From positions 37,601-101,600 of the forward strand of contig CAWHJC010000014.1 in assembly GCA_963829565.1 (NCBI GenBank): a DNA stretch of 64,000 nucleotides, written 5' to 3'. The translations under genes and the position numbers were made by a program. Below the pieces are notes generated by a model, which was given only the letters and a program-made list of their open reading frames with translations, had not been told where the DNA came from and made no database searches. Within the stretch, counting starts at the first letter, position 1; the number at the start of each line of letters is the position of its first letter. This document shows positions 44,624 through 53,790 of the stretch, piece after piece. The stretch is from an uncultured Actinomycetota bacterium (GTDB taxonomy: Bacteria; Actinomycetota; Actinomycetes; JACCUZ01).

Positions 44624-45192
44624 ATGAGCGAAGCGTACGGAGACACCAGCACCAGCCGGTCCGCCCGGCTGGACCGCATCCTGACCGAGCTGGTCGGGCA
44701 GGTGCCCGAGATCGAGGCCGCGTCAGTGGTGTCCTTCGACGGGCTCGCGATGGCGTCCGCGCTACCCGCCGCCATGGACGAGGACCGGGTGGCCGCGATG
44801 AGCGCCGCCCTGCTCTCGCTCGGCGAGCGGGCCGCCGAAGGCCTCGGTCGCGGAATGCTGTCCCAGGTCTACGTCGAGGGCGAGAACGGCACCGTCTTCC
44901 TCATCTCGGCCGACGACGAGGCCGTCCTGGTCGCGGTCGCGGCCAAGGGCGCCAAGGTGGGCCTGATGCTCTTCGAGGTACGTCGGGCAGCTGCCGCCGT
45001 CGCCGAGGCCCTGCGGGTCGAGCTCGACTACGGTCAGCGGCCGACGAGCTGCCCGCTCCCGCACCGCTGCAGGTCGTGAGCCCGGCTCCGGCCGCATCGT
45101 CGGACCGGTCGCCCTACGACCCGCCGTTCGAGTCGTCGCACTCCGCGTCCGGGGCGCACGCCGCGCCGGCCGACTCTCCGTCCTGGAGCTGA
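44624..45192 (+). CDS. Roadblock/LC7 (MglB-like) protein; ORF ends 45079 as read, tail probably continues to TGA 45190-45192
   Basis: ASVVSFDGLAMAS, DRVAAMSAALLSLGERAA, QVYVEGENG, KVGLMLFEVRRAA. Confidence 0.88.
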
Positions 45193-45195
45193 CCG

Positions 45196-46505
45196 ATGAA
45201 GCTCGAAGGCTCGCTCGACGCGTTCAGCCTGCCGGACATCTTCCAGCTGCTGAGCTTCACCAAGAAGACCGGCGGCCTGCACCTGGCCAGCGACGGTGCC
45301 GACGGCGTCGTGTTCTTCGCCGCCGGCCAGGTCACCGGCGCGTCCGCCGACAGCTCCCGGCAACCGCTGGCCCGCCGCATCGTCGGCAGCGGCGCCGTGA
45401 CGGACGAGGCCCTGGTCGCTGCCGTGGACGCGGTTGCCCGCGGTGAGGGCGTAGGGGTCGTCAAGGCCCTGCTGGACTCCGACGCGGTCGACGCCGACCT
45501 GCTGCGGCAGGCAGCCCACGACCAGGCCACCGACGCGATCTTCGACCTGCTGCGCTGGCGGGTCGGCGACTTCGCCTTCGTGATGGACGAGGCCAACCCC
45601 GACGACGTCGGAGTGGCCGTCGCCATCGAGGAGGTGCTCGCCGACGCCGAGGCACGCAAGACCACCTGGGAGACCGTGTCGCAGGTGGTGCCCTCCTCCA
45701 AGTCGGTGCTCGCCATGCCGGTCGTCCTGGCCGGCGAGCCGTCGGTCAGCCGTGAGGAGTGGTCGCTGCTGGCGCTGGTCGACGGCCGGCGCAGCGTCTC
45801 CGAGCTGGTGGACCTGACCGGTAGCGGTCAGTACGCCGTGGTGTCGAACGCTGGCGGCCCTGGTGCAGCGCGGCCTCCTCGAGGTCCGCAGCGAGGGTGG
45901 CGACGGTGACGAGCTCGACCACGTCGCCGTGGTCGTCCGTCGCCAGTCGCTGCTGGCGCCGCTCGAGCAGTTCACCCCGGTGGTCGCCCCGGCGCAGTCG
46001 GTGCCCGACGTACCCGCCGCTGCGGCGCCTGCGGCCACCCCCGTCTCGGCCCCCGCGGACAACGGATGCGGGAAAGTGACCGGCGTCAGGTGGCCCAGGA
46101 CGCATCCGATGTCGCGGAGAGCGGCGACGAGGGCAGCGACAGTGCCGGCGCGGACCCCGAGCTGGTGACGGCCTCGGCCGCGCCCGACCAGCCGTCCATG
46201 CTGGGTGGCGCCCACGTGCCGCAGGACGTCGTTCCTCCCCGGCCGGAGCCGTTCCTGCCGAAGCGGCAGGCCGACTTCGACGAGTCCTCCACTGTCGTGG
46301 CATCGCCGCGCCGTGGAGCTCGCCGGCCATGCGACCGGTCAGCGTCGGCGGCAACAGCGGAGGCGGGGGAGGTGGTGGTCTCGGCGACGTCGTCGGTGCG
46401 ACCGCCACGGCGCCCGACCCGGATGCCGCGTCGGTGATCGAGCGGGACCCGAACGTCAACCGCAGCCTGATGCTGCGGCTCATCGCCGGTGTGAGGGGAC
46501 TCTAG
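45196..46505 (+). CDS. DUF4388 domain protein with winged-helix-like segment and low-complexity linker (indels)
   Basis: LEGSLDAFSLPDIFQLL...KTGGL; LLRWRVGDFAF; WSLLALVDGRRSVSELV; ends RSLMLRLIAGVRGL*. Confidence 0.8.
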
Positions 46506-47081
46506 ATGGCCACGCCGCGCACGCGCCGCCGAGGAGGGCAGGCGGTCAAGGTCGTCGTGACCGGGCCGTTCTCCGCCGGCAAGACGACGCTCATCCGGAC
46601 CATCAGCGAGATCACCGTGCTCTCCACCGAGCGCGGGATCACCGACTCGACCCGCAAGCGCAAGGCCGAGACCACGGTGGCGATGGACTTCGGTCGCATC
46701 ACCATCGACCGCGACCTGGTGCTCTACCTGTTCGGCACCCCGGGGCAGGACCGCTTCGACTTCATGTGGGAGATCCTCGGCGAGGGGATGATCGGCTACC
46801 TGCTGCTCGTCGACGTCTCGCGCGAGGAGTCCGTGCAGGAGGCGGCGAGCATCCTCGAGGCGTTCCGGCGGATGGCGCGGGTCCCCTTCGTGGTGGGCCT
46901 CAACCGTGCCTCGGCCGACGACAACCTGCTCGTCGAGAGCGTCCGCGCCCGGCTCGACATCCCCTCGGACGTCGCGATCCTGCCGTGCGACGCCACGGAC
47001 AAGGAATCGGTCAAGAACGTCCTGCTGGCGCTGCTCTACGCGGTCCTCGACGAGGTCGAGACCGAGGCCGTCCGGGCCTGA
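46506..47081 (+). CDS. MglA/CvnD-like small GTPase
   Basis: P-loop GPFSAGKTT, TTVAMDFG, LFGTPGQDRFDFMW, degenerate G4 GLNR. Confidence 0.88.
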   Translation: MATPRTRRRGGQAVKVVVTGPFSAGKTTLIRTISEITVLSTERGITDSTRKRKAETTVAMDFGRITIDRDLVLYLFGTPGQDRFDFMWEILGEGMIGYLLLVDVSREESVQEAASILEAFRRMARVPFVVGLNRASADDNLLVESVRARLDIPSDVAILPCDATDKESVKNVLLALLYAVLDEVETEAVRA

Positions 47082-47082
47082 G

Positions 47083-47352
47083 ATGGCCACGGCCGGTCGA
47101 AGCCTGTACGCGCTCGCCGGACGGGTGGGTCGGCGCCGCCGCCCCGACCCGCCGGTCGTCGTGACGGTGGTGCTCGACTCGGGGGAGCAGGTCACCGTCC
47201 CGCCGCGACTCACCGCTGGCCCGGGCCATGGGACAGGTCGCCGGCTTGCTGGCGCACTGGTGAGCCCGCAGCGGCCGCTGGTGACTACAGGAACGGGACC
47301 CGCCGCCCGATGGTCACTGAGGACATCGGCTCAGGGAGAGGACGTGGCGTGA
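47083..47352 (+). CDS. Hypothetical 89-aa ORF between GTPase and pilB
   Basis: ATG 1 nt after GTPase stop; stop overlaps pilB GTG (GTGA); no recognisable motif. Confidence 0.35.
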   Translation: MATAGRSLYALAGRVGRRRRPDPPVVVTVVLDSGEQVTVPPRLTAGPGHGTGRRLAGALVSPQRPLVTTGTGPAARWSLRTSAQGEDVA

Positions 47353-49014
47353 AGCAGCTGGGCGACATCCTGCTGGAAGGCGGGCTGGTCAACCCGACCC
47401 AGCTCGAGCTCGCCTACGCCGAGCAGGAGCGGGTCGGACGAGCCCTCGGTCGGGTCCTGATCGAGCAGGGCGTCCTGACCGAGTCCCAGCTGGTCTCGGC
47501 GCTGGCGACCCAGATCGGCCTGCGCTTCGTCGACCTCTCGGACTTCCCGGTGGACGGCTCCGCCATCGGCCGGATCCCGGGTCCCGTGTGCCGCCGGCAC
47601 GCGGCGATGCCGATCGGCTTCGAGGACGGCAAGCTGCTGGTCGCCATGGCCGACCCGGCCAACGTGTTCGCGATCGACGACATCCGCTCGCTGACCGGCA
47701 TGGACGTCAAGCCGGTGGTCGCCACCCGCGGCGACGTCGCCGCTGCCATCGACCGCTACTACCGCGCCGACTCCGACCTCGACGACATCTCCGCCGTCCT
47801 GGACGCCCAGGAGGAGGAGGACGAGCTCTCCAAGGTCAAGGAGATCGTCGAGGACGCGCCGATCGTCAAGTACGTCAACCTGCTCATCACGCAGGCGATC
47901 CAGGACCGCGCGTCGGACATCCACCTCGAGCCGACGGAGACCGACCTACGGGTCCGCTTCCGCATCGACGGCGTCCTGCACGAGGTGATGCGCTCGCCCA
48001 AGGCGATCCAGTCGGGCGTCATCAGCCGGCTGAAGATCATGGCGGACATCAACATCGCCGAGCGCCGGATCCCCCAGGACGGTCGCCTCTCCGTCAACGC
48101 CCACGGCCGCAAGATCGACCTCCGGGTCGCCACGCTGCCGACGGTGTGGGGCGAGAAGGTCGTCATGCGAATCCTGGACAACTCCACGGCGCGCCTCGAC
48201 CTGACCGACCTCGGCTTCTCCGAGGACAACTACGAGCGCTACTCGCGCAGCTTCACCAAGCCCTACGGGATGATCCTGGTCACCGGGCCGACCGGCTCCG
48301 GCAAGTCCACGACCCTCTACGCCACGCTGAACATCGTCAGCCGGCCAGAGGTGAACGTGATCACCGTCGAGGACCCGGTGGAGTACCGGCTGCCCGGCAT
48401 CAACCAGGTGCAGACCAACAACAAGGCCGGCCTGACCTTCGCCTCGGCGCTGCGCTCGATCCTGCGCTCGGACCCGGACATCGTGCTCATCGGTGAGATC
48501 CGGGACCACGAGACCGGACAGATCGCCGTCGAGGCAGCCCTCACCGGTCACCTCGTGCTGTCGACCCTGCACACCAACGACGCCCCCTCGGCGGTCACCC
48601 GGCTGACCGAGATGGGCATCGAACCGTTCCTGGTGGGGTCGGCGCTGGACGCCGTTCTCGCCCAGCGCCTCGCCCGCCGGCTGTGCGTCAAGTGCAAGGA
48701 GGCGTACACGCCGACCCGGGAGTCCCTGGTGGCGTCGCGGTTCCCGTGGTCGGACGACAAGCCGCTGCCGGAGCTGTTCCGGCCGATCGGCTGCTCGGCG
48801 TGCGCCAAGACCGGCTACAAGGGCCGCCTGGCCCTGCACGAGGTGATGATCGTCAGCGAGGAGGTCGAGCGGCTCGCGGTCGAGCGCGCCTCGGCCACGG
48901 TCATCTCGCAGGTCGCGCGGGAACGAGGGCATGCGGACGCTGCGGGACGACGGGCTGGACAAGGTCCTCGCGGGCGTCACATCGATGGACGAGATCCTCC
49001 GGGTCGTCGTCTAA
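47349..49014 (+). CDS. pilB: Type IV pilus assembly ATPase PilB (late frameshift)
   Basis: MshEN-like QLGDILLEGGLV...LGRVLIEQG; ASDIHLEP, AERRIPQDG, GPTGSGKSTT, EDPVEY, RSDPDIVLIGEIRD, STLHTND; Cys pairs CVKC and CSAC. Confidence 0.93.
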
Positions 49015-49039
49015 AGGCTTGGCAAGGTCGCCCTCCCGG

Positions 49040-49066
49040 CTCAAGCCAGGGGCCGACCCGGCCGAT
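49040..49066 (+). promoter_or_regulatory. sigma28/WhiG-like promoter CTCA-N17-GCCGAT before pilT
   Basis: CCCGGCTCAAG...GCCGAT, 61 nt upstream of GTG 49128. Confidence 0.65.
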
Positions 49067-49127
49067 CCTTCGCGAGAACAGGTGCGCCCGCCGTCCGCGG
49101 GCCACCGGAGCTGAGAGGGGTCAGCAC

Positions 49128-50727
49128 GTGGAGACGTCCGGATACCAGCCGGTCCCGAGTGAGCCGGGGGGCTTCACCTCGATGCCCGTCCCCGTGCCCG
49201 AGGAAGAGGCACCGGCCGGCGAGGGGTGGACCTACTCCTCCTCGGCCGACGCGCGCGCCCGAGGCCGAGGCGCCGCTGGACGGCACCGTCTCCTTCGCCG
49301 AGCCGCCCGCTGCTTTCGCCGAGCCCGTCCCTTCGCCGAGCCGGTCTCCTTCGCCGAGCCGGTTGCGTACGCCGAGGCCGCTGCGTTCGCCGAGCCGGTT
49401 CCGCCGGCCGAGCCGGCGGCCGACCCGCTCGGGCGCCGGGTACGCCCTGGAGCAGTCGAACGTCCCGGTGCAGGCACCCCCGCCCTACGCGCTGCCCGAG
49501 CAGGCCGCCCCGGCGGCGAGCTCGCATCGCCCCTCGTCGCGGCCTTCGCGGGCGAGGTCGTGACCCTTCGAGGCGGGCGAGTCCTCCGTGCTGATCGCCG
49601 AGTCGGAGGCCGAGGAGTCGGCCTACCAGCGCGGCTCCACCGAGGCGGAGGGTGACGAGAACGACATCACCCTCAACGACCTGCTGATGCACGTGCTCGA
49701 CACCGGCGCCTCCGACCTGCACCTCACGTCGGGCGCCCGGCCCGCGATCCGCCTGAACGGCGAGCTGAAGCAGCTCGAGGACCAGCCGATCCTCACCCCG
49801 CCCGTGATCCAGCGGGTGATGTACGCGGCCCTGACCCAGAAGCAGCGGGAGAAGTTCGAGGAGAACCTCGAGCTCGACTTCGCCTACAGCGTGCCCGGCC
49901 GAGCCCGGTTCCGCGTCAACATCTACCGCCAGCGCGACGCGCTCGGTGCGGCCTTCCGCATCATCCCGTTCGAGATCCGCAAGCTCGAGGACCTGGGCGT
50001 CCCGCCGTCGGTGGCGAACTTCGCCTCGCTCCCGCGCGGCTTCGTCCTCGTCACCGGCCCGACCGGCTCGGGCAAGTCCACGACGCTGGCCTCGCTGATC
50101 GACCTCGCGAACCGGACCCGCAGCGAGCACATCATGACCGTCGAGGACCCGATCGAGTTCCTCCACCGGCACCAGAAGTGCATCGTGAACCAGCGCGAGG
50201 TGGGGGAGGACACCTGGTCCTTCCAGAACGCGCTCAAGCACGTGCTCCGCCAGGACCCCGACATCATCCTGGTCGGCGAGATGCGCGACCTCGAGACGAT
50301 CTCGGTCGCCCTGACCGCCGCCGAGACCGGTCACCTCGTCTTCGCCACCCTGCACACCCAGGACGCGGCCCAGACGATCGACCGCATCATCGACGTCTTC
50401 CCGACCAACCAGCAGCAGCAGGTCCGCGTCCAGCTGGCCGGCTCGCTGCAGGGTGTGGTCTGCCAGACCCTGGCCAAGACCCGCGACGGGCGCGGCCGAG
50501 CGGTGGCCACCGAGGTGCTGGTCGCCACGCCGGCGATCCGCAACCTGATCCGCGAGGGCAAGACGCACCAGATCTACTCGGCGATGCAGGCCGGGGCCAA
50601 GCACGGCATGCACACGATGGACCAGCACCTCGCGGACCTGGTCATGAAGGGCAAGATCACCTACGAGGTCGGCCTCGAGAAGTGCCACCACGTCGAGGAC
50701 TTCAACCGGCTCTCCGGCCGAGGCTGA
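49128..50727 (+). CDS. pilT: Type IV pilus retraction ATPase PilT with ~170-aa disordered N-terminal extension (indels in extension)
   Basis: GASDLHLTSG, RFRVNIYRQR, GPTGSGKSTTLA, EDPIEF, LRQDPDIILVGEMRD, AETGHLVFATLHT, AIRNLIRE. Confidence 0.95.
49288..49415 (+). repeat. About seven imperfect 18-bp coding tandem repeats (VSFAEP-like hexapeptides)
   Basis: GTCTCCTTCGCCGAGCCG and variants in tandem. Confidence 0.75.
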
Positions 50728-50738
50728 GAGGCATTCCG

Positions 50739-51970
50739 ATGGCAGCGACGCTGACTTTCCAGTACTCGGTGCGCGACCGCACCGGCAAGATCGTCTCCGG
50801 GACGCTCGAGGCGGAGTCCCAGACCGCCGTGGCCTCCAAGCTGAAGCAGATGGGCTACGCGCCCGTCAGCATCACCAAGTCCAAGGCCGGGATGAAGACG
50901 GACATCAACATCCCGGGCTTCGGCAAGAAGAAGGTGAAGCTCAAGGACCTGGCGGTCATGTCGCGACAGTTCGCGACGATGATCAACTCCGGCCTGTCGA
51001 TGCTTCGCTCGCTGACCATCCTGGCGGAGCAGACCGACAACAAGGAGCTCGCCCGGGTCCTTGGGCGAGGTGGGCAAGGACGTGGAGACCGGCGGCGCGC
51101 TGTCGGCGTCGCTGGCCAAGCACCCGAACGTCTTCCCGCCGTTGTTCGTCAACATGTGCCGGGCCGGCGAGGTCGGGGGCTTCCTGGACTCCGTGCTCCT
51201 CCAGATCGCGGCGAACTACGAGGCCGAGGTCAAGCTGCGCGGCAAGGTCAAGTCCGCGATGACCTACCCGGTCGTCGTGCTCGTGATGGCCATCCTCGCC
51301 GTGATCGGCATGCTGCTGTTCATCGTCCCGACGTTCGCCGCGATGTTCGACACCCTCGGCGGTGAGCTGCCGGCTCCCACCAAGATCCTCGTGTGCGATG
51401 TCCAACCTGCTCAAGGTGGGCGCGCCGTTCCTGCTCGTCGGTGCTGATCGCCGCGTTCGTCACGTGGGGCAAGGTGAAGCACAAGCCGCAGGTCCGCAAC
51501 GTCGTCGACCCGCTCAAGCTCAAGATCCCGGTCTTCGGCAAGCTGTTCCAGAAGATCGCCCTGAGCCGGTTCGCCCGCAACCTCGGCACCATGATGCACT
51601 CCGGCGTGCCGATCCTGCAGAGCCTCGAGATCGTCGTCGGACACCACCGGCAACGTCGTCCTGGCACGGGCGATCCGCGACGTCCAGGACAGCGTCCGGA
51701 GCGGTGAGTCGTTGGCCGCCCCGCTGGCCAACCACCCGGTCTTCCCGCCCGATGGTGGTGCAGATGATGTCCGTCGGTGAGGACACCGGCGCGCTGGACA
51801 CCATGCTGCACAAGATCTCCGAGTTCTACGACCAGGAGGTCGAGGCGACGACCGAGTCGCTGACCGCGCTGATCGAGCCGCTGATGATCGCCTTCCTCGG
51901 CGGCATCGTCGGGTCCATGATCATCGCGCTCTACATGCCGATCTTCAAGATCTTCGACCTGATCGAGTAG
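50739..51970 (+). CDS. pilC: Type IV pilus platform protein PilC (indels)
   Basis: RQFATMINSGL, HPNVFPPLF, AGEVGGFL, KVKSAMTYP, GEDTGALDTML, LIEPLMI, ALYMPIF. Confidence 0.93.
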
Positions 51971-51983
51971 CCGACCCCAGCTC

Positions 51984-52022
51984 GCCGGAGGGCCGGACCC
52001 TGACAGGGTCCGGCCCTCCGGC
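51984..52022 (+). terminator. 19-bp perfect hairpin after pilC
   Basis: GCCGGAGGGCCGGACCCTG-A-CAGGGTCCGGCCCTCCGGC. Confidence 0.75.
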
Positions 52023-52072
52023 TGTTCGACCTAGCCCCTTCGGGTGGCCGGCAGAAATTTCCCGGTCAGCCG

Positions 52073-52103
52073 CTCAAGGCGGAGCGTCGCTCCGCACCGA
52101 AAA
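52073..52103 (+). promoter_or_regulatory. Possible sigma28-like promoter CTCA-N19-ACCGAAAA before the riboswitch/pilin
   Basis: GCTCAAG...ACCGAAAA; spacer 2 nt longer than the best copies and itself palindromic. Confidence 0.4.
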
Positions 52104-52124
52104 CCACCTTGTCAACGAGCCACA

Positions 52125-52217
52125 CCGGCCAGAAACGGCACACCCGTCGAAAGACGGGGTCGCAAAGCCAGGGAACCGCGTGACAGAGATCGCGGTCAGC
52201 CCAGCTGCCTCGGCCGG
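52125..52217 (+). ncRNA. c-di-GMP-I (GEMM) riboswitch in the major pilin leader
   Basis: GGCACACCCGTC-GAAA-GACGGGGTCGCAAAGCC aligns gap-free to the Vc2 P2 core as I recall it (G20=52137, GAAA loop 52149-52152, A47=52164); P3 ends CAGCCCAGCTGCC; P1 CCGGCC/GGCCGG. Confidence 0.88.
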
Positions 52218-52289
52218 CACCCCGTCAGGGTGCCGCGAGGGACCGGCGGCGTGGCTCACGGGAACGGTCCTGAAAGGACGGAGCATCAC

Positions 52290-52705
52290 ATGCTCGCTCG
52301 CATCCGCAAGTCGGCGGAGGAGAAGGACCAGGGCTTCACCCTGATCGAGCTCCTCGTCGTCATCATCATCATCGGCATCCTCGCCGCCATCGCCATCCCG
52401 GTCTTCCTGAACCAGCGGCAGAAGGGCTACAAGGCCGACATGAAGTCGGCGCCTGAAGAACATGCGCCACGGCCGTGGAGTCCTGCGCCACCGAGATCAA
52501 CGGCGACTACACCGGCACTGCACGCTGGCGGACCTGGAGGCCGACGAGGGCTTCAACTACTCGCCCGACCTCAGCCCGGTCGTCGTCCGTCGAGGCGACC
52601 GGACCGGCTACTGCCTCGAGCACCACGGACGACCCGCCTCGCCGGCAGCGACGTTCTACTACTCAGCGACCGACGGCGTTCCGTCGGAGAACCGCCTGCG
52701 TCTGA
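52290..52705 (+). CDS. pilA: Type IVa major pilin (indels in globular domain)
   Basis: Class III signal KDQG|FTLIELLVVIIIIGILAAIAIP; Cys residues in the head; downstream hairpin. Confidence 0.88.
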
Positions 52706-52721
52706 TCCACCGTCTCACCGG

Positions 52722-52752
52722 AGGGGCGGTCCCTGCTAACGGGCCGCCCCTT
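52722..52752 (+). terminator. Hairpin after major pilin
   Basis: AGGGGCGG-T-CCC...GGG-CCGCCCCTT. Confidence 0.6.
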
Positions 52753-52821
52753 CGGCGTATCAATTCACGGTCGCTTTACCCTGGCATGACGTTCAAGGCG
52801 AAAGCGAAAGGGGGTGAGCAC

Positions 52822-53229
52822 ATGCGAAGGAACGAACACGAACAGGCCGGCTTCACCCTGATCGAGCTGCTCGTCGTCATCATCATCATCGGCATCCTGG
52901 CGGCAATCGCGATCCCGGTGTTCCTCAACCAGCGGGAGAAGGGCTGGCGGTGCCCAAGCCGTAGCGACATGCGGAACGCCGCTACCGCAGTGGAGTCCTA
53001 CGCAGCCGACAGCGCCGGCTCCTACGCCGGCGTGAACGGCGCCAATCAGAGCTCGCCGGAGCTGCTCACCGAGGGCTTCCGTCCCGGCTCGCTGGTGTCG
53101 GTGGAGGTCGTCAGCACGTCCTCGGATTACTGCGTCCGAGGGTTCCACGACCAGCTCGACGACGAGTTCGTGTTCCGGAGCACCGACGGGGTCGTGAAGA
53201 GCGGCAACCCGGGCTTTATCCCTTGTTGA
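52822..53229 (+). CDS. Second type IV pilin paralogue
   Basis: EQAG|FTLIELLVVIIIIGILAAIAIPVFLNQR; intact ORF with purine-rich RBS region. Confidence 0.88.
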   Translation: MRRNEHEQAGFTLIELLVVIIIIGILAAIAIPVFLNQREKGWRCPSRSDMRNAATAVESYAADSAGSYAGVNGANQSSPELLTEGFRPGSLVSVEVVSTSSDYCVRGFHDQLDDEFVFRSTDGVVKSGNPGFIPC

Positions 53230-53231
53230 CC

Positions 53232-53276
53232 ATCGGCGTCGCGCGGAGGCTCAACCGGCCTCCGCGCGATGCCGAT
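53232..53276 (+). promoter_or_regulatory. 19-bp hairpin containing a CTCA-N17-GCCGAT promoter motif (53250-53276)
   Basis: ATCGGCGTCGCGCGGAGGC-TCAACCG-GCCTCCGCGCGATGCCGAT. Confidence 0.6.
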
Positions 53277-53309
53277 AGTCGAACCCGCGGCCAACCCAAG
53301 GAGGAGCAC

Positions 53310-53790
53310 GTGAGGCGTCCACGACGCGGCGACGACAGCGGCTTCACGCTGCTCGAGGCGATCAGCGTGTGCCTCCTGCTCGGCATCCTCGTCGGCATGG
53401 CAGTCGGGCCGTGGCAGTCCTACCGGCATGCCCGGGCCCATCGCGAGGCGCGCGACGAGGTCGTCGCCACGCTGCGTAACGCGCAGATCGCCTCCGTGGC
53501 CGAGAACATCACGTACCGGGTGGACATCTCGGGCACGACCGCAATCAGCTACCGGGTGCCCGTCGCCGGCACCGCGGTCGTGAAGCGCCGCTACGTCATC
53601 GAAGACCCGAAGATCGCCTTCGATCGGTCCCCAGTTCACGACTCCATCGGGTGGCACGTCGGCCTCCGTCTACTTCTACCCGCGAGGCTCGGCCGGAAAG
53701 GGCGACGTCGACGTCGTCCGCGACGGCGACACCAAGATCTACACCGTCTCAGTGGAAGGACTGACAGCTCGTGTCGCTTTCACGGACTGG
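53310..53790 (+). CDS. FimT/GspH-like minor pilin (indels, end approximate)
   Basis: DDSG|FTLLEAISVCLLLGIL; LRNAQIASVAEN; VYFYPRGSA in later frame. Confidence 0.75.

Follow-up and report, generated by a model that had tools for sequence, protein, structure and literature searches.

The leader of a type IV pilin gene in an uncultured Actinomycetota bacterium contains a member of the class I cyclic di-GMP (c-di-GMP-I, or GEMM-I) riboswitch family. We found it in a 64,000-nt stretch of assembled DNA (hereafter the window; contig CAWHJC010000014.1 of GCA_963829565.1, positions 37,601 to 101,600), where the aptamer occupies positions 52127-52212 and the pilin gene starts at 52290; coordinates are those of the window unless another contig is named, and the window features described lie on its + strand. 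The analysis established the family membership of this element, its conservation, its linkage to the pilin gene and three helices of the leader, P0, P1 and H1. In the reading that we favour, to which we assign a probability of about 0.55, it is a functional c-di-GMP riboswitch in the roughly 178-nt 5' untranslated region (UTR) of a one-gene pilin transcript, which would be made from a WhiG/FliA-type promoter, and it would switch between two folds to control translation, preferably as an ON switch.

Scanning the 64-kb window with cmscan against Rfam 15 returned a single match above the gathering score, to RF01051 (c-di-GMP-I), with 56.0 bits (gathering cut-off 35; E-value 2.9e-8) and an alignment spanning the full model (positions 1-87 of 87). 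This bears out the original prediction for this DNA, which had proposed such an aptamer upstream of the pilin gene and named the Rfam threshold as the check. A search of the whole source genome (3.9 Mb) found one GEMM-I copy, at the same locus. The structural landmarks also lie where they had been predicted: P2 (52138-39/52162-63 and 52143-48/52153-58) is capped by a GAAA loop of the GNRA type (52149-52152), the CGCAAAG junction spans 52161-52167, and the position equivalent to G20 is G52137. P3 comprises 52166-68/52204-06, 52171-73/52200-02 and 52175-80/52191-96, and the equivalents of the other two ligand-contacting positions, A47 and C92, are A52164 and C52208. The C92 equivalent and the P1 pairing were numbered from the structure line of the related model RF03167.

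We scored structure conservation among related leaders, of which a pattern search gave 104 unique sequences and a covariance model (CM) gave 43. A global MAFFT alignment of all 104 leaders folded with RNAalifold recovered the aptamer only, because the lengths of the expression platforms differ, and a 37-sequence subset alignment was therefore scored against structures that we specified, with 500 shuffles for comparison. The whole specified structure was 93% paired, a value reached by 0 of 500 shuffles; P2 was 100% paired with two compensatory pairs, and the inner part of P3 showed four compensatory pairs. The P2 loop is GNRA in 103 of the 104 leaders, and in most relatives it reads GYGA. Position 20 is G in 103/104 pattern-derived and 42/43 CM-derived leaders, and all 43 CM-derived leaders have A at position 47. 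The large majority of leaders carry C at position 92, a count that is non-independent in the pattern-derived set, where the search pattern fixes this base. The A20 hallmark of the cyclic GMP-AMP (cGAMP) type, GEMM-Ib, is absent from the window aptamer and present in only one of the 104 relatives. These counts are consistent with the earlier suggestion that G20 predicts c-di-GMP rather than cGAMP as the ligand. Judged from its sequence, the leader carries a genuine class I c-di-GMP riboswitch of the parent G20/A47/C92 type, and we would expect it to bind c-di-GMP. Its placement is that of a cis-regulatory 5' UTR element: a promoter motif ends 23 nt before the aptamer, the ATG lies 78 nt after it, the transcription start is predicted to lie between the promoter motif and the aptamer, and more than 100 loci have kept this layout.

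That the aptamer senses another cyclic dinucleotide (e.g., 3'3'-cGAMP), or is a relic that does not regulate, seems to us very improbable. GEMM-I variants of other specificity do exist, the leader L068 has A20, and the positions of the model's 11-nt tetraloop receptor (CUAA...UAU) appear as gaps in the cmscan alignment of the window aptamer. The c-di-GMP-I-GGC model (RF03167), which describes nearly the same architecture with G instead of A at position 47, scores 55.1 bits on the window aptamer over a full-length alignment and cross-matches the same loci as RF01051 throughout the family. Against this, the parent combination of G20, A47 and C92 is nearly invariant, and we rejected the GGC assignment because its score falls below the cut-off of 59 and its defining G47 is replaced by A. 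At least 14 families show deep conservation of the element together with covariation, which argues further against a relic. L068, from a Nocardioidaceae metagenome-assembled genome (MAG), is the sole pattern-derived leader with A20 and may represent a naturally occurring variant of this riboswitch of the cGAMP type.

The linkage between aptamer and pilin extends well beyond the source genome. Of 41 relatives, 27 have an RF01051 match, and so do 120 of the 401 genomes sampled across the class, representing 68 of 175 genera. They fall into two GEMM-I subtypes, one of 78-86 nt that is always followed, 65-93 nt later, by a pilin of the MLARIRK type, and one of 75 nt. An exact-pattern scan of species-representative genomes yielded 102 stretches of the pilin subtype, mostly in MAGs labelled Frankiales, Sporichthyaceae, Motilibacteraceae, Nanopelagicales, Mycobacteriales and Nocardioidaceae, and also in two cultured Aquipuribacter genomes. 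A strict pilin filter was passed by 117 of 133 riboswitch units, nearly all the others being contig ends or pilins that start with MF or MH; the single exception among the 133 was an unrelated Firmicute match. Forty Rfam matches sampled independently from 13 further families of the class included 35 with a recognisable core, and 30 of these preceded the same pilin.

The 75-nt subtype, which is absent from the source genome, scores about 70 bits and ends 9-18 nt before the start codons of small secreted proteins (in the relatives L003, L006, L028, L005, L007, L009 and L020), an arrangement that suggests direct occlusion of the Shine-Dalgarno (SD) sequence by P1. Tandem duplicated riboswitch-pilin cassettes 600-850 bp apart were observed in several related genomes (L022, L027, L038, L040-L042, L065, L081, L097, L106 and L119). 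Two MAGs named Bifidobacterium breve (L052 and L054) share their leader and pilin with the freshwater actinobacterium acAMD-2 (L037), and these bins are probably mislabelled.

The unit to which the leader belongs runs, in order, through a hairpin, a promoter motif, the leader, one pilin gene and a second hairpin. The promoter motif is of the WhiG/FliA (sigma-28) type and spans 52073-52103, with CTCAAG at 52073-78, a spacer, and ACCGAAAA at 52096-52103. The window contains five matches to the pattern CTCAA-N15-19-CCGAW, compared with 0.49 expected, and all five (44538, 49040, 52073, 53250 and 58349) are on the + strand within the pil gene cluster. The pattern agrees with the published actinobacterial WhiG/FliA consensus, CTCA-N16-17-GCCGAACT or T(A/C)AA-N16-GCCGATAA (PMC12871210). 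A strict form of the motif precedes 58 of the 104 related leaders, with a 17-nt spacer in 46 of the 58 and GCCGAA as the commonest -10 element. A GTCA box, at 52111-52114 in the window, is conserved in the aligned leaders and lies exactly 9 nt past the NCCGAW element in 51 of the 56 leaders scored. From this fixed spacing we predict a transcription start near 52111 and thus the 5' UTR of about 178 nt. The source genome encodes one FliA_WhiG-family sigma factor (281.7 bits against a cut-off of 189.6), and no flagellin was found in it.

Upstream, 14 nt after the pilC stop codon (UAG, 51968-70), an 18-bp perfect hairpin at 51984-52022 folds with -45.7 kcal/mol (z-score -6.7), as well as none of 200 shuffles, and is followed by CUGUUCG, a weak U-tract. 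It looks like a terminator that would insulate the pilin unit from pilB-pilT-pilC, in agreement with the strong separating hairpin that had been noted earlier. Downstream, a 15-bp hairpin at 52718-52755 (-35.6 kcal/mol, z-score -5.0) closes the first pilin gene. Because the riboswitch lies between its own predicted promoter and a pilin gene, with strong hairpins on both sides, and is present in a single copy, the original prediction that it is dedicated to the major pilin stands as far as dedication is concerned; that this pilin is the major one would follow from its gene position.

Around the aptamer we identified a long-range helix, P0, which pairs GAGCCAC at 52117-52123 with GUGGCUC at 52251-52257, the latter within a conserved GGCUCAC box that lies some 33 nt upstream of the ATG. 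In the 37-sequence alignment, 93.7% of P0 cells were paired compared with 86.9% in shuffles (0/500 reached the observed value), both-sided changes occurred in five of the seven pairs (22 such cells against 6.7 expected), and slid registers gave at most 39% pairing. Compensatory variants in other platform types and families include GAGCUGC/GCAGCUC, GAGUCGU/GCGACUC, GAGCUGA/UCGGCUC, AUGACCGCC/GGCGGUCGU and UGCUGCGUC/GGCGCGGCA. P0 is thus a covarying helix that encloses both the aptamer and hairpin H1, and it is a new detail of this family.

Within P0, the 5' strand of P1 (CCGGCCAG, 52125-52132) has two potential partners. In the ligand-competent fold it pairs with 52209-52217, leaving C52211 bulged, and this P1 was 92.8% paired in the alignment with changes of the GGUC/GACC type. 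The alternative partner is GGCGG at 52245-49. The 3' strand of P1 is likewise contested: the hairpin GGCACCC-CGUCA-GGGUGCC (52216-52234) had been predicted to overlap it as a possible switch, and we found that it does overlap and compete with P1, and that it extends to 52208-52240. This extended hairpin, H1, is a 13-bp bulged structure (-24.3 kcal/mol, z-score -2.55) with a lower stem of CCUCG 52208-12 and CGAGG 52236-40 and an upper stem of CGGCACCC 52215-22 and GGGUGCCG 52228-35. The upper stem covaries, with both-sided changes in six pairs; pairing in the lower stem reaches 95.9%, and its changes are confined to one side. With C92 and the P1 3' strand tied up in H1, the ligand-bound fold is excluded. 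Downstream of the upper stem lies segment b (CGAGGGACCGGCGG, 52236-52249), which contains an SD-like mimic, GAGGGAC, with a putative role in output; a purine-rich segment of the GAGGG type recurs at this position in most platform types.

Folding of the leader is consistent with an exchange between these pairings. The unconstrained minimum free energy (MFE) structure of 52111-52295 has -89.0 kcal/mol (z-score -3.4) and holds P0, P2, P3, H1 and the alternative pairing of the P1 5' strand with GGCGG, whereas the fold constrained to the ligand-competent aptamer has -82.0 kcal/mol. The leader would therefore encode a switch by strand exchange; its two folds differ by about 7 kcal/mol, which ligand binding could cover given the affinities of GEMM-I aptamers. 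In the predicted ligand-free fold, CCUCG and the P1 5' strand clamp segment 52236-49 at its two ends, whereas the predicted bound fold leaves this segment single-stranded. We propose that P1 and the pair formed by H1 and the alternative partner exchange inside P0, and regard this predicted strand-exchange core as another new detail.

The region in front of the pilin start points to translation initiation as the output. We read an SD region, AAAGGACGGAG, at 52273-52283, 6-11 nt before the ATG, and GAAAGGA or GAAGGGA is conserved at SD distance in related leaders. In a small hairpin, GUCCU-GAA-AGGAC (52267-52279), the anti-SD is the 5' arm, and the SD forms the loop and the 3' arm. This is the second hairpin of the original prediction, which covers the SD as had been described; it is weak when folded alone (-6.9 kcal/mol, z-score -1.0) and in the alignment it is 89.1% paired compared with 85.7% in shuffles, a level reached by 0/500. 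An intrinsic terminator was considered as the output and rejected, as a consensus scan of 51500-53500 found none and the platforms of 103 of the 104 leaders have U runs of at most 3, that is, no run of 4 or more. Translational control is the likeliest output, given that the platform lacks a U-tract and that a small hairpin pairs the SD with an anti-SD. Beyond the SD, the MFE structure has a 6-bp hairpin over the start codon, GAGCAU-CAC-AUGCUC (52282-52295). Among relatives, the codons after the AUG, CUC GCU CGC, show an unusual degree of nucleotide conservation.

A mechanism can be put together from these elements, in which the binding of the ligand, the site of transcription start, and both the translational nature of the output and its sign are the parts that we infer. 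P0 would close the leader by joining its 5' end to the GGCUCAC box, and two folds would compete within it. Without ligand, H1 would capture C92 and the P1 3' strand and the P1 5' strand would pair with GGCGG 52245-49, so that purine-rich 52236-49 would be clamped on both sides. With c-di-GMP, P1 (52125-32/52209-17) and the binding pocket would form and 52236-49 would be released. The most likely point of action is translation initiation: the anti-SD CGGUCCU (52265-52271), whose GUCCU pairs with AGGAC of the SD, could alternatively pair with the freed mimic GGGACCG (52239-45) in a proposed pseudoknot across the P0 3' strand, which would free the SD. The presence of four alternately complementary elements, CCUCG, CGAGGGACCG, CGGUCCU and AGGAC, suggests a relay in which the ligand would capture the first, the second, an SD mimic, would become free to pair with the third, and the SD would open; the ON direction is weakly favoured.

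The sign of the switch also has to be seen in the signalling context of the source genome, which has 36 GGDEF matches in about 30 proteins. NF053729, the model of an MshE-type c-di-GMP-binding motif, scores 56.8 bits (cut-off 38) on residues 16-68 of PilB (window 47355-47513), which also match Pfam MshEN (E-value 7.8e-26), so the PilB motor may sense c-di-GMP as well. This motif fits signal-promoted pilus assembly and therefore makes an ON switch coherent. An open reading frame (ORF) of about 182 aa on another contig (C17, 13471-14205, - strand) resembles RsiG, an anti-sigma factor that depends on c-di-GMP, in having two E-x3-S-x2-R-x3-Q-x3-D motifs; it matched no NCBIfam model and was identified by this twin motif only. 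According to the published model (PMC8325347), RsiG together with c-di-GMP sequesters WhiG and would switch it off when c-di-GMP is high. A single messenger may thus reach three levels, namely transcription, the pilin leader and the motor.

Several observations weigh against the mechanism that we favour. The pairing of mimic and anti-SD does not rise above chance in column shuffles (84.6% paired compared with 84.1%; 157/500 shuffles reach it), nor does its duplex energy exceed that of composition-matched mimic shuffles (mean z-score -0.2). It crosses the P0 3' strand, hence the need for a pseudoknot, and the anti-SD or the mimic is absent from several related platform types. Across the 104 leaders the SD was equally accessible with and without the aptamer constraint (mean unpaired 0.41 in both states; nine leaders up, nine down), and nested folding formed the SD hairpin and P0 in both states. 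At the promoter, the window has a 19-nt spacer rather than 17 nt, and its -10 element, ACCGAA, begins with A; the site is therefore imperfect or affected by assembly indels. The frame of the pilin gene at 52290 is broken from about 52440, with homologous pieces in three frames. Finally, the RsiG-like protein makes an OFF switch equally coherent.

An OFF switch with the same riboswitch and the same two-state core, in which c-di-GMP lowers pilin translation and so reinforces the shut-off of WhiG by RsiG, is a possible alternative that we rate as unlikely, though less so than the two other rival explanations. The switch could act by two routes, as released GCGAG (52235-39) could pair with CUCGC in codons 2-4, or stacking of P1 on P0 could stabilise the SD and start-codon hairpins. 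The RsiG-like ORF and the single WhiG-type sigma factor agree with it, given that WhiG is silenced at high c-di-GMP (PMC8325347), as do the start-codon hairpin GAGCAU/AUGCUC of the MFE structure and the conserved, unusual CUC GCU CGC codons, which suggest a constraint at the RNA level. In leaders L107 and L131, moreover, the MFE structure constrained to the bound state pairs the released segment with the start-codon region (AUCUGCC/GGCAGAU), and in another leader group GCGAGCG is complementary to CGCUCGC in codons 2-4. However, the GCGAG/CUCGC pairing is only 5 bp long and shows no covariation, and leaders with AUGCUGGCU keep GCGAG. The four complementary elements better fit a relay towards ON, and the c-di-GMP motif of PilB argues for signal-promoted piliation.

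The constancy of the SD hairpin in the nested folds speaks for another explanation, namely that the ligand changes the stability of 5'-terminal P0, and with it 5'-end-dependent decay or Rho access, so that the fate of the mRNA is regulated while the SD hairpin is constitutive. P0 is indeed the best-supported helix outside the aptamer and lies about 6 nt from the predicted 5' end, and some platform types have a hairpin overlapping the P0 3' strand and a 5' hairpin overlapping the P0 5' strand. Yet P0 is intact in both predicted states of the window leader, and a G-rich, highly structured leader is a poor Rho site; we consider regulation of this kind improbable.

The translational ON reading could be carried further. 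The leader would then represent a distinct architectural subtype of GEMM-I, in which the sensor is enclosed by a 5'-terminal P0 and an SD mimic, clamped on both sides until its release, neutralises the anti-SD by forming a pseudoknot. Within a c-di-GMP circuit of three levels (RsiG-WhiG for transcription, the riboswitch for translation, MshEN on PilB), it would be the middle one, and the circuit would limit piliation to an intermediate band of c-di-GMP concentration. We offer this extended proposal tentatively and doubt that it holds as a whole.

Comparison with known systems places the element close to established riboswitches. With Vc2 of Vibrio cholerae and the RF01051 family it shares the three-helix aptamer, the GNRA-capped P2, the CGCAAAG junction, G20/A47/C92 and the position in a 5' UTR; it differs in having no 11-nt tetraloop receptor, an additional P0, a terminator-free platform and a high-GC actinobacterial host. 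The GEMM-Ib riboswitches of Geobacter have A20 and sense cGAMP. They too tie the GEMM-I fold to genes for pili and extracellular appendages, unlike the leaders described here in that 103/104 of the latter have G20. Cdi2_4 of Clostridioides difficile is an ON switch. It is a class II c-di-GMP riboswitch upstream of pilA1 (Bordeleau et al., 2015, as cited in PMC6916266). It resembles the window leader in being a c-di-GMP-sensing leader directly on the major type IV pilin of a monoderm bacterium, and differs in its class, its Firmicute host and its use of transcription antitermination, where the actinobacterial class I element is proposed to act on translation.

Studies of c-di-GMP in Actinomycetota have centred on proteins (BldD, RsiG-WhiG). 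Two recent analyses of WhiG regulons list type IV pilus genes as targets and make no mention of a riboswitch (PMC8325347; PMC12871210). The system described here shares with WhiG/RsiG systems the promoter type in front of pil genes, a WhiG-family sigma factor, an RsiG-like protein and the messenger; those systems control transcription at the protein level, whereas here an RNA sensor lies between a WhiG-type promoter and the pilin ORF. The original prediction had considered an RNA sensor on an actinobacterial pilin notable. Our literature search found no description of an actinobacterial GEMM-I/pilin riboswitch. An RNA sensor in an actinobacterium is less unusual than was implied: GEMM-I is found in 120/401 sampled genomes of the class, and the occurrence of GEMM elements close to pilus genes was pointed out in 2007 (PMC1950547). 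Since riboswitches of this class were already known, as was their association with pili in other phyla, the advance is one of distribution and wiring rather than of kind. Mostly uncultured actinomycete families, together with cultured Aquipuribacter, carry a c-di-GMP riboswitch directly behind a WhiG-type promoter on a pilin gene, and the new details are P0, the predicted strand-exchange core and the fixed coupling to the WhiG-type promoter. If the riboswitch works, one messenger would control pilus production at the levels of transcription, translation and motor, a case of layered second-messenger control.

The first pilin gene (52290-52715) matches PF07963 (N_methyl; E-value 7.5e-10). The N-terminus of its product, MLARIRKSAEEKDQG|FTLIELLVVIIIIGILAAIAIPVF, has the G/FTLIE cleavage-methylation motif followed by a hydrophobic helix, as is typical of type IV pilins (MLARIRKSAEEKDQG/FTLIELLVV...). 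An upstream in-frame ORF that would extend the N-terminus (from GTG 52230 or 52251) was considered and rejected, since neither its frame nor its length is conserved in relatives. Broken frames were also seen elsewhere in the 47310-52715 region, in the C-terminal part of pilB and in pilC, which is split into three ORF pieces. With an estimated completeness of 64% for the source genome (3.9 Mb in 29 contigs), we therefore regard it as an indel-rich long-read MAG, rather than the pilin gene as a proven pseudogene. The pilin frameshifts could not be mapped against the pilin of the closest relative, as the globular domains diverge, and conclusions at the coding level from this indel-prone assembly need care.

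The pil cluster comprises pilB (47310), pilT (49588), pilC (about 50700-51970) and the pilin genes with ATGs at 52290 and 52822, and also holds minor pilins, a prepilin peptidase and pilM/N/O-like genes. The second pilin paralogue (52822) likewise matches N_methyl, and no second aptamer was found before it at E ≤ 1. A trio of Roadblock/LC7, DUF4388 and small-GTPase genes (44624-47081) heads the pilus cluster, behind a WhiG-type motif.

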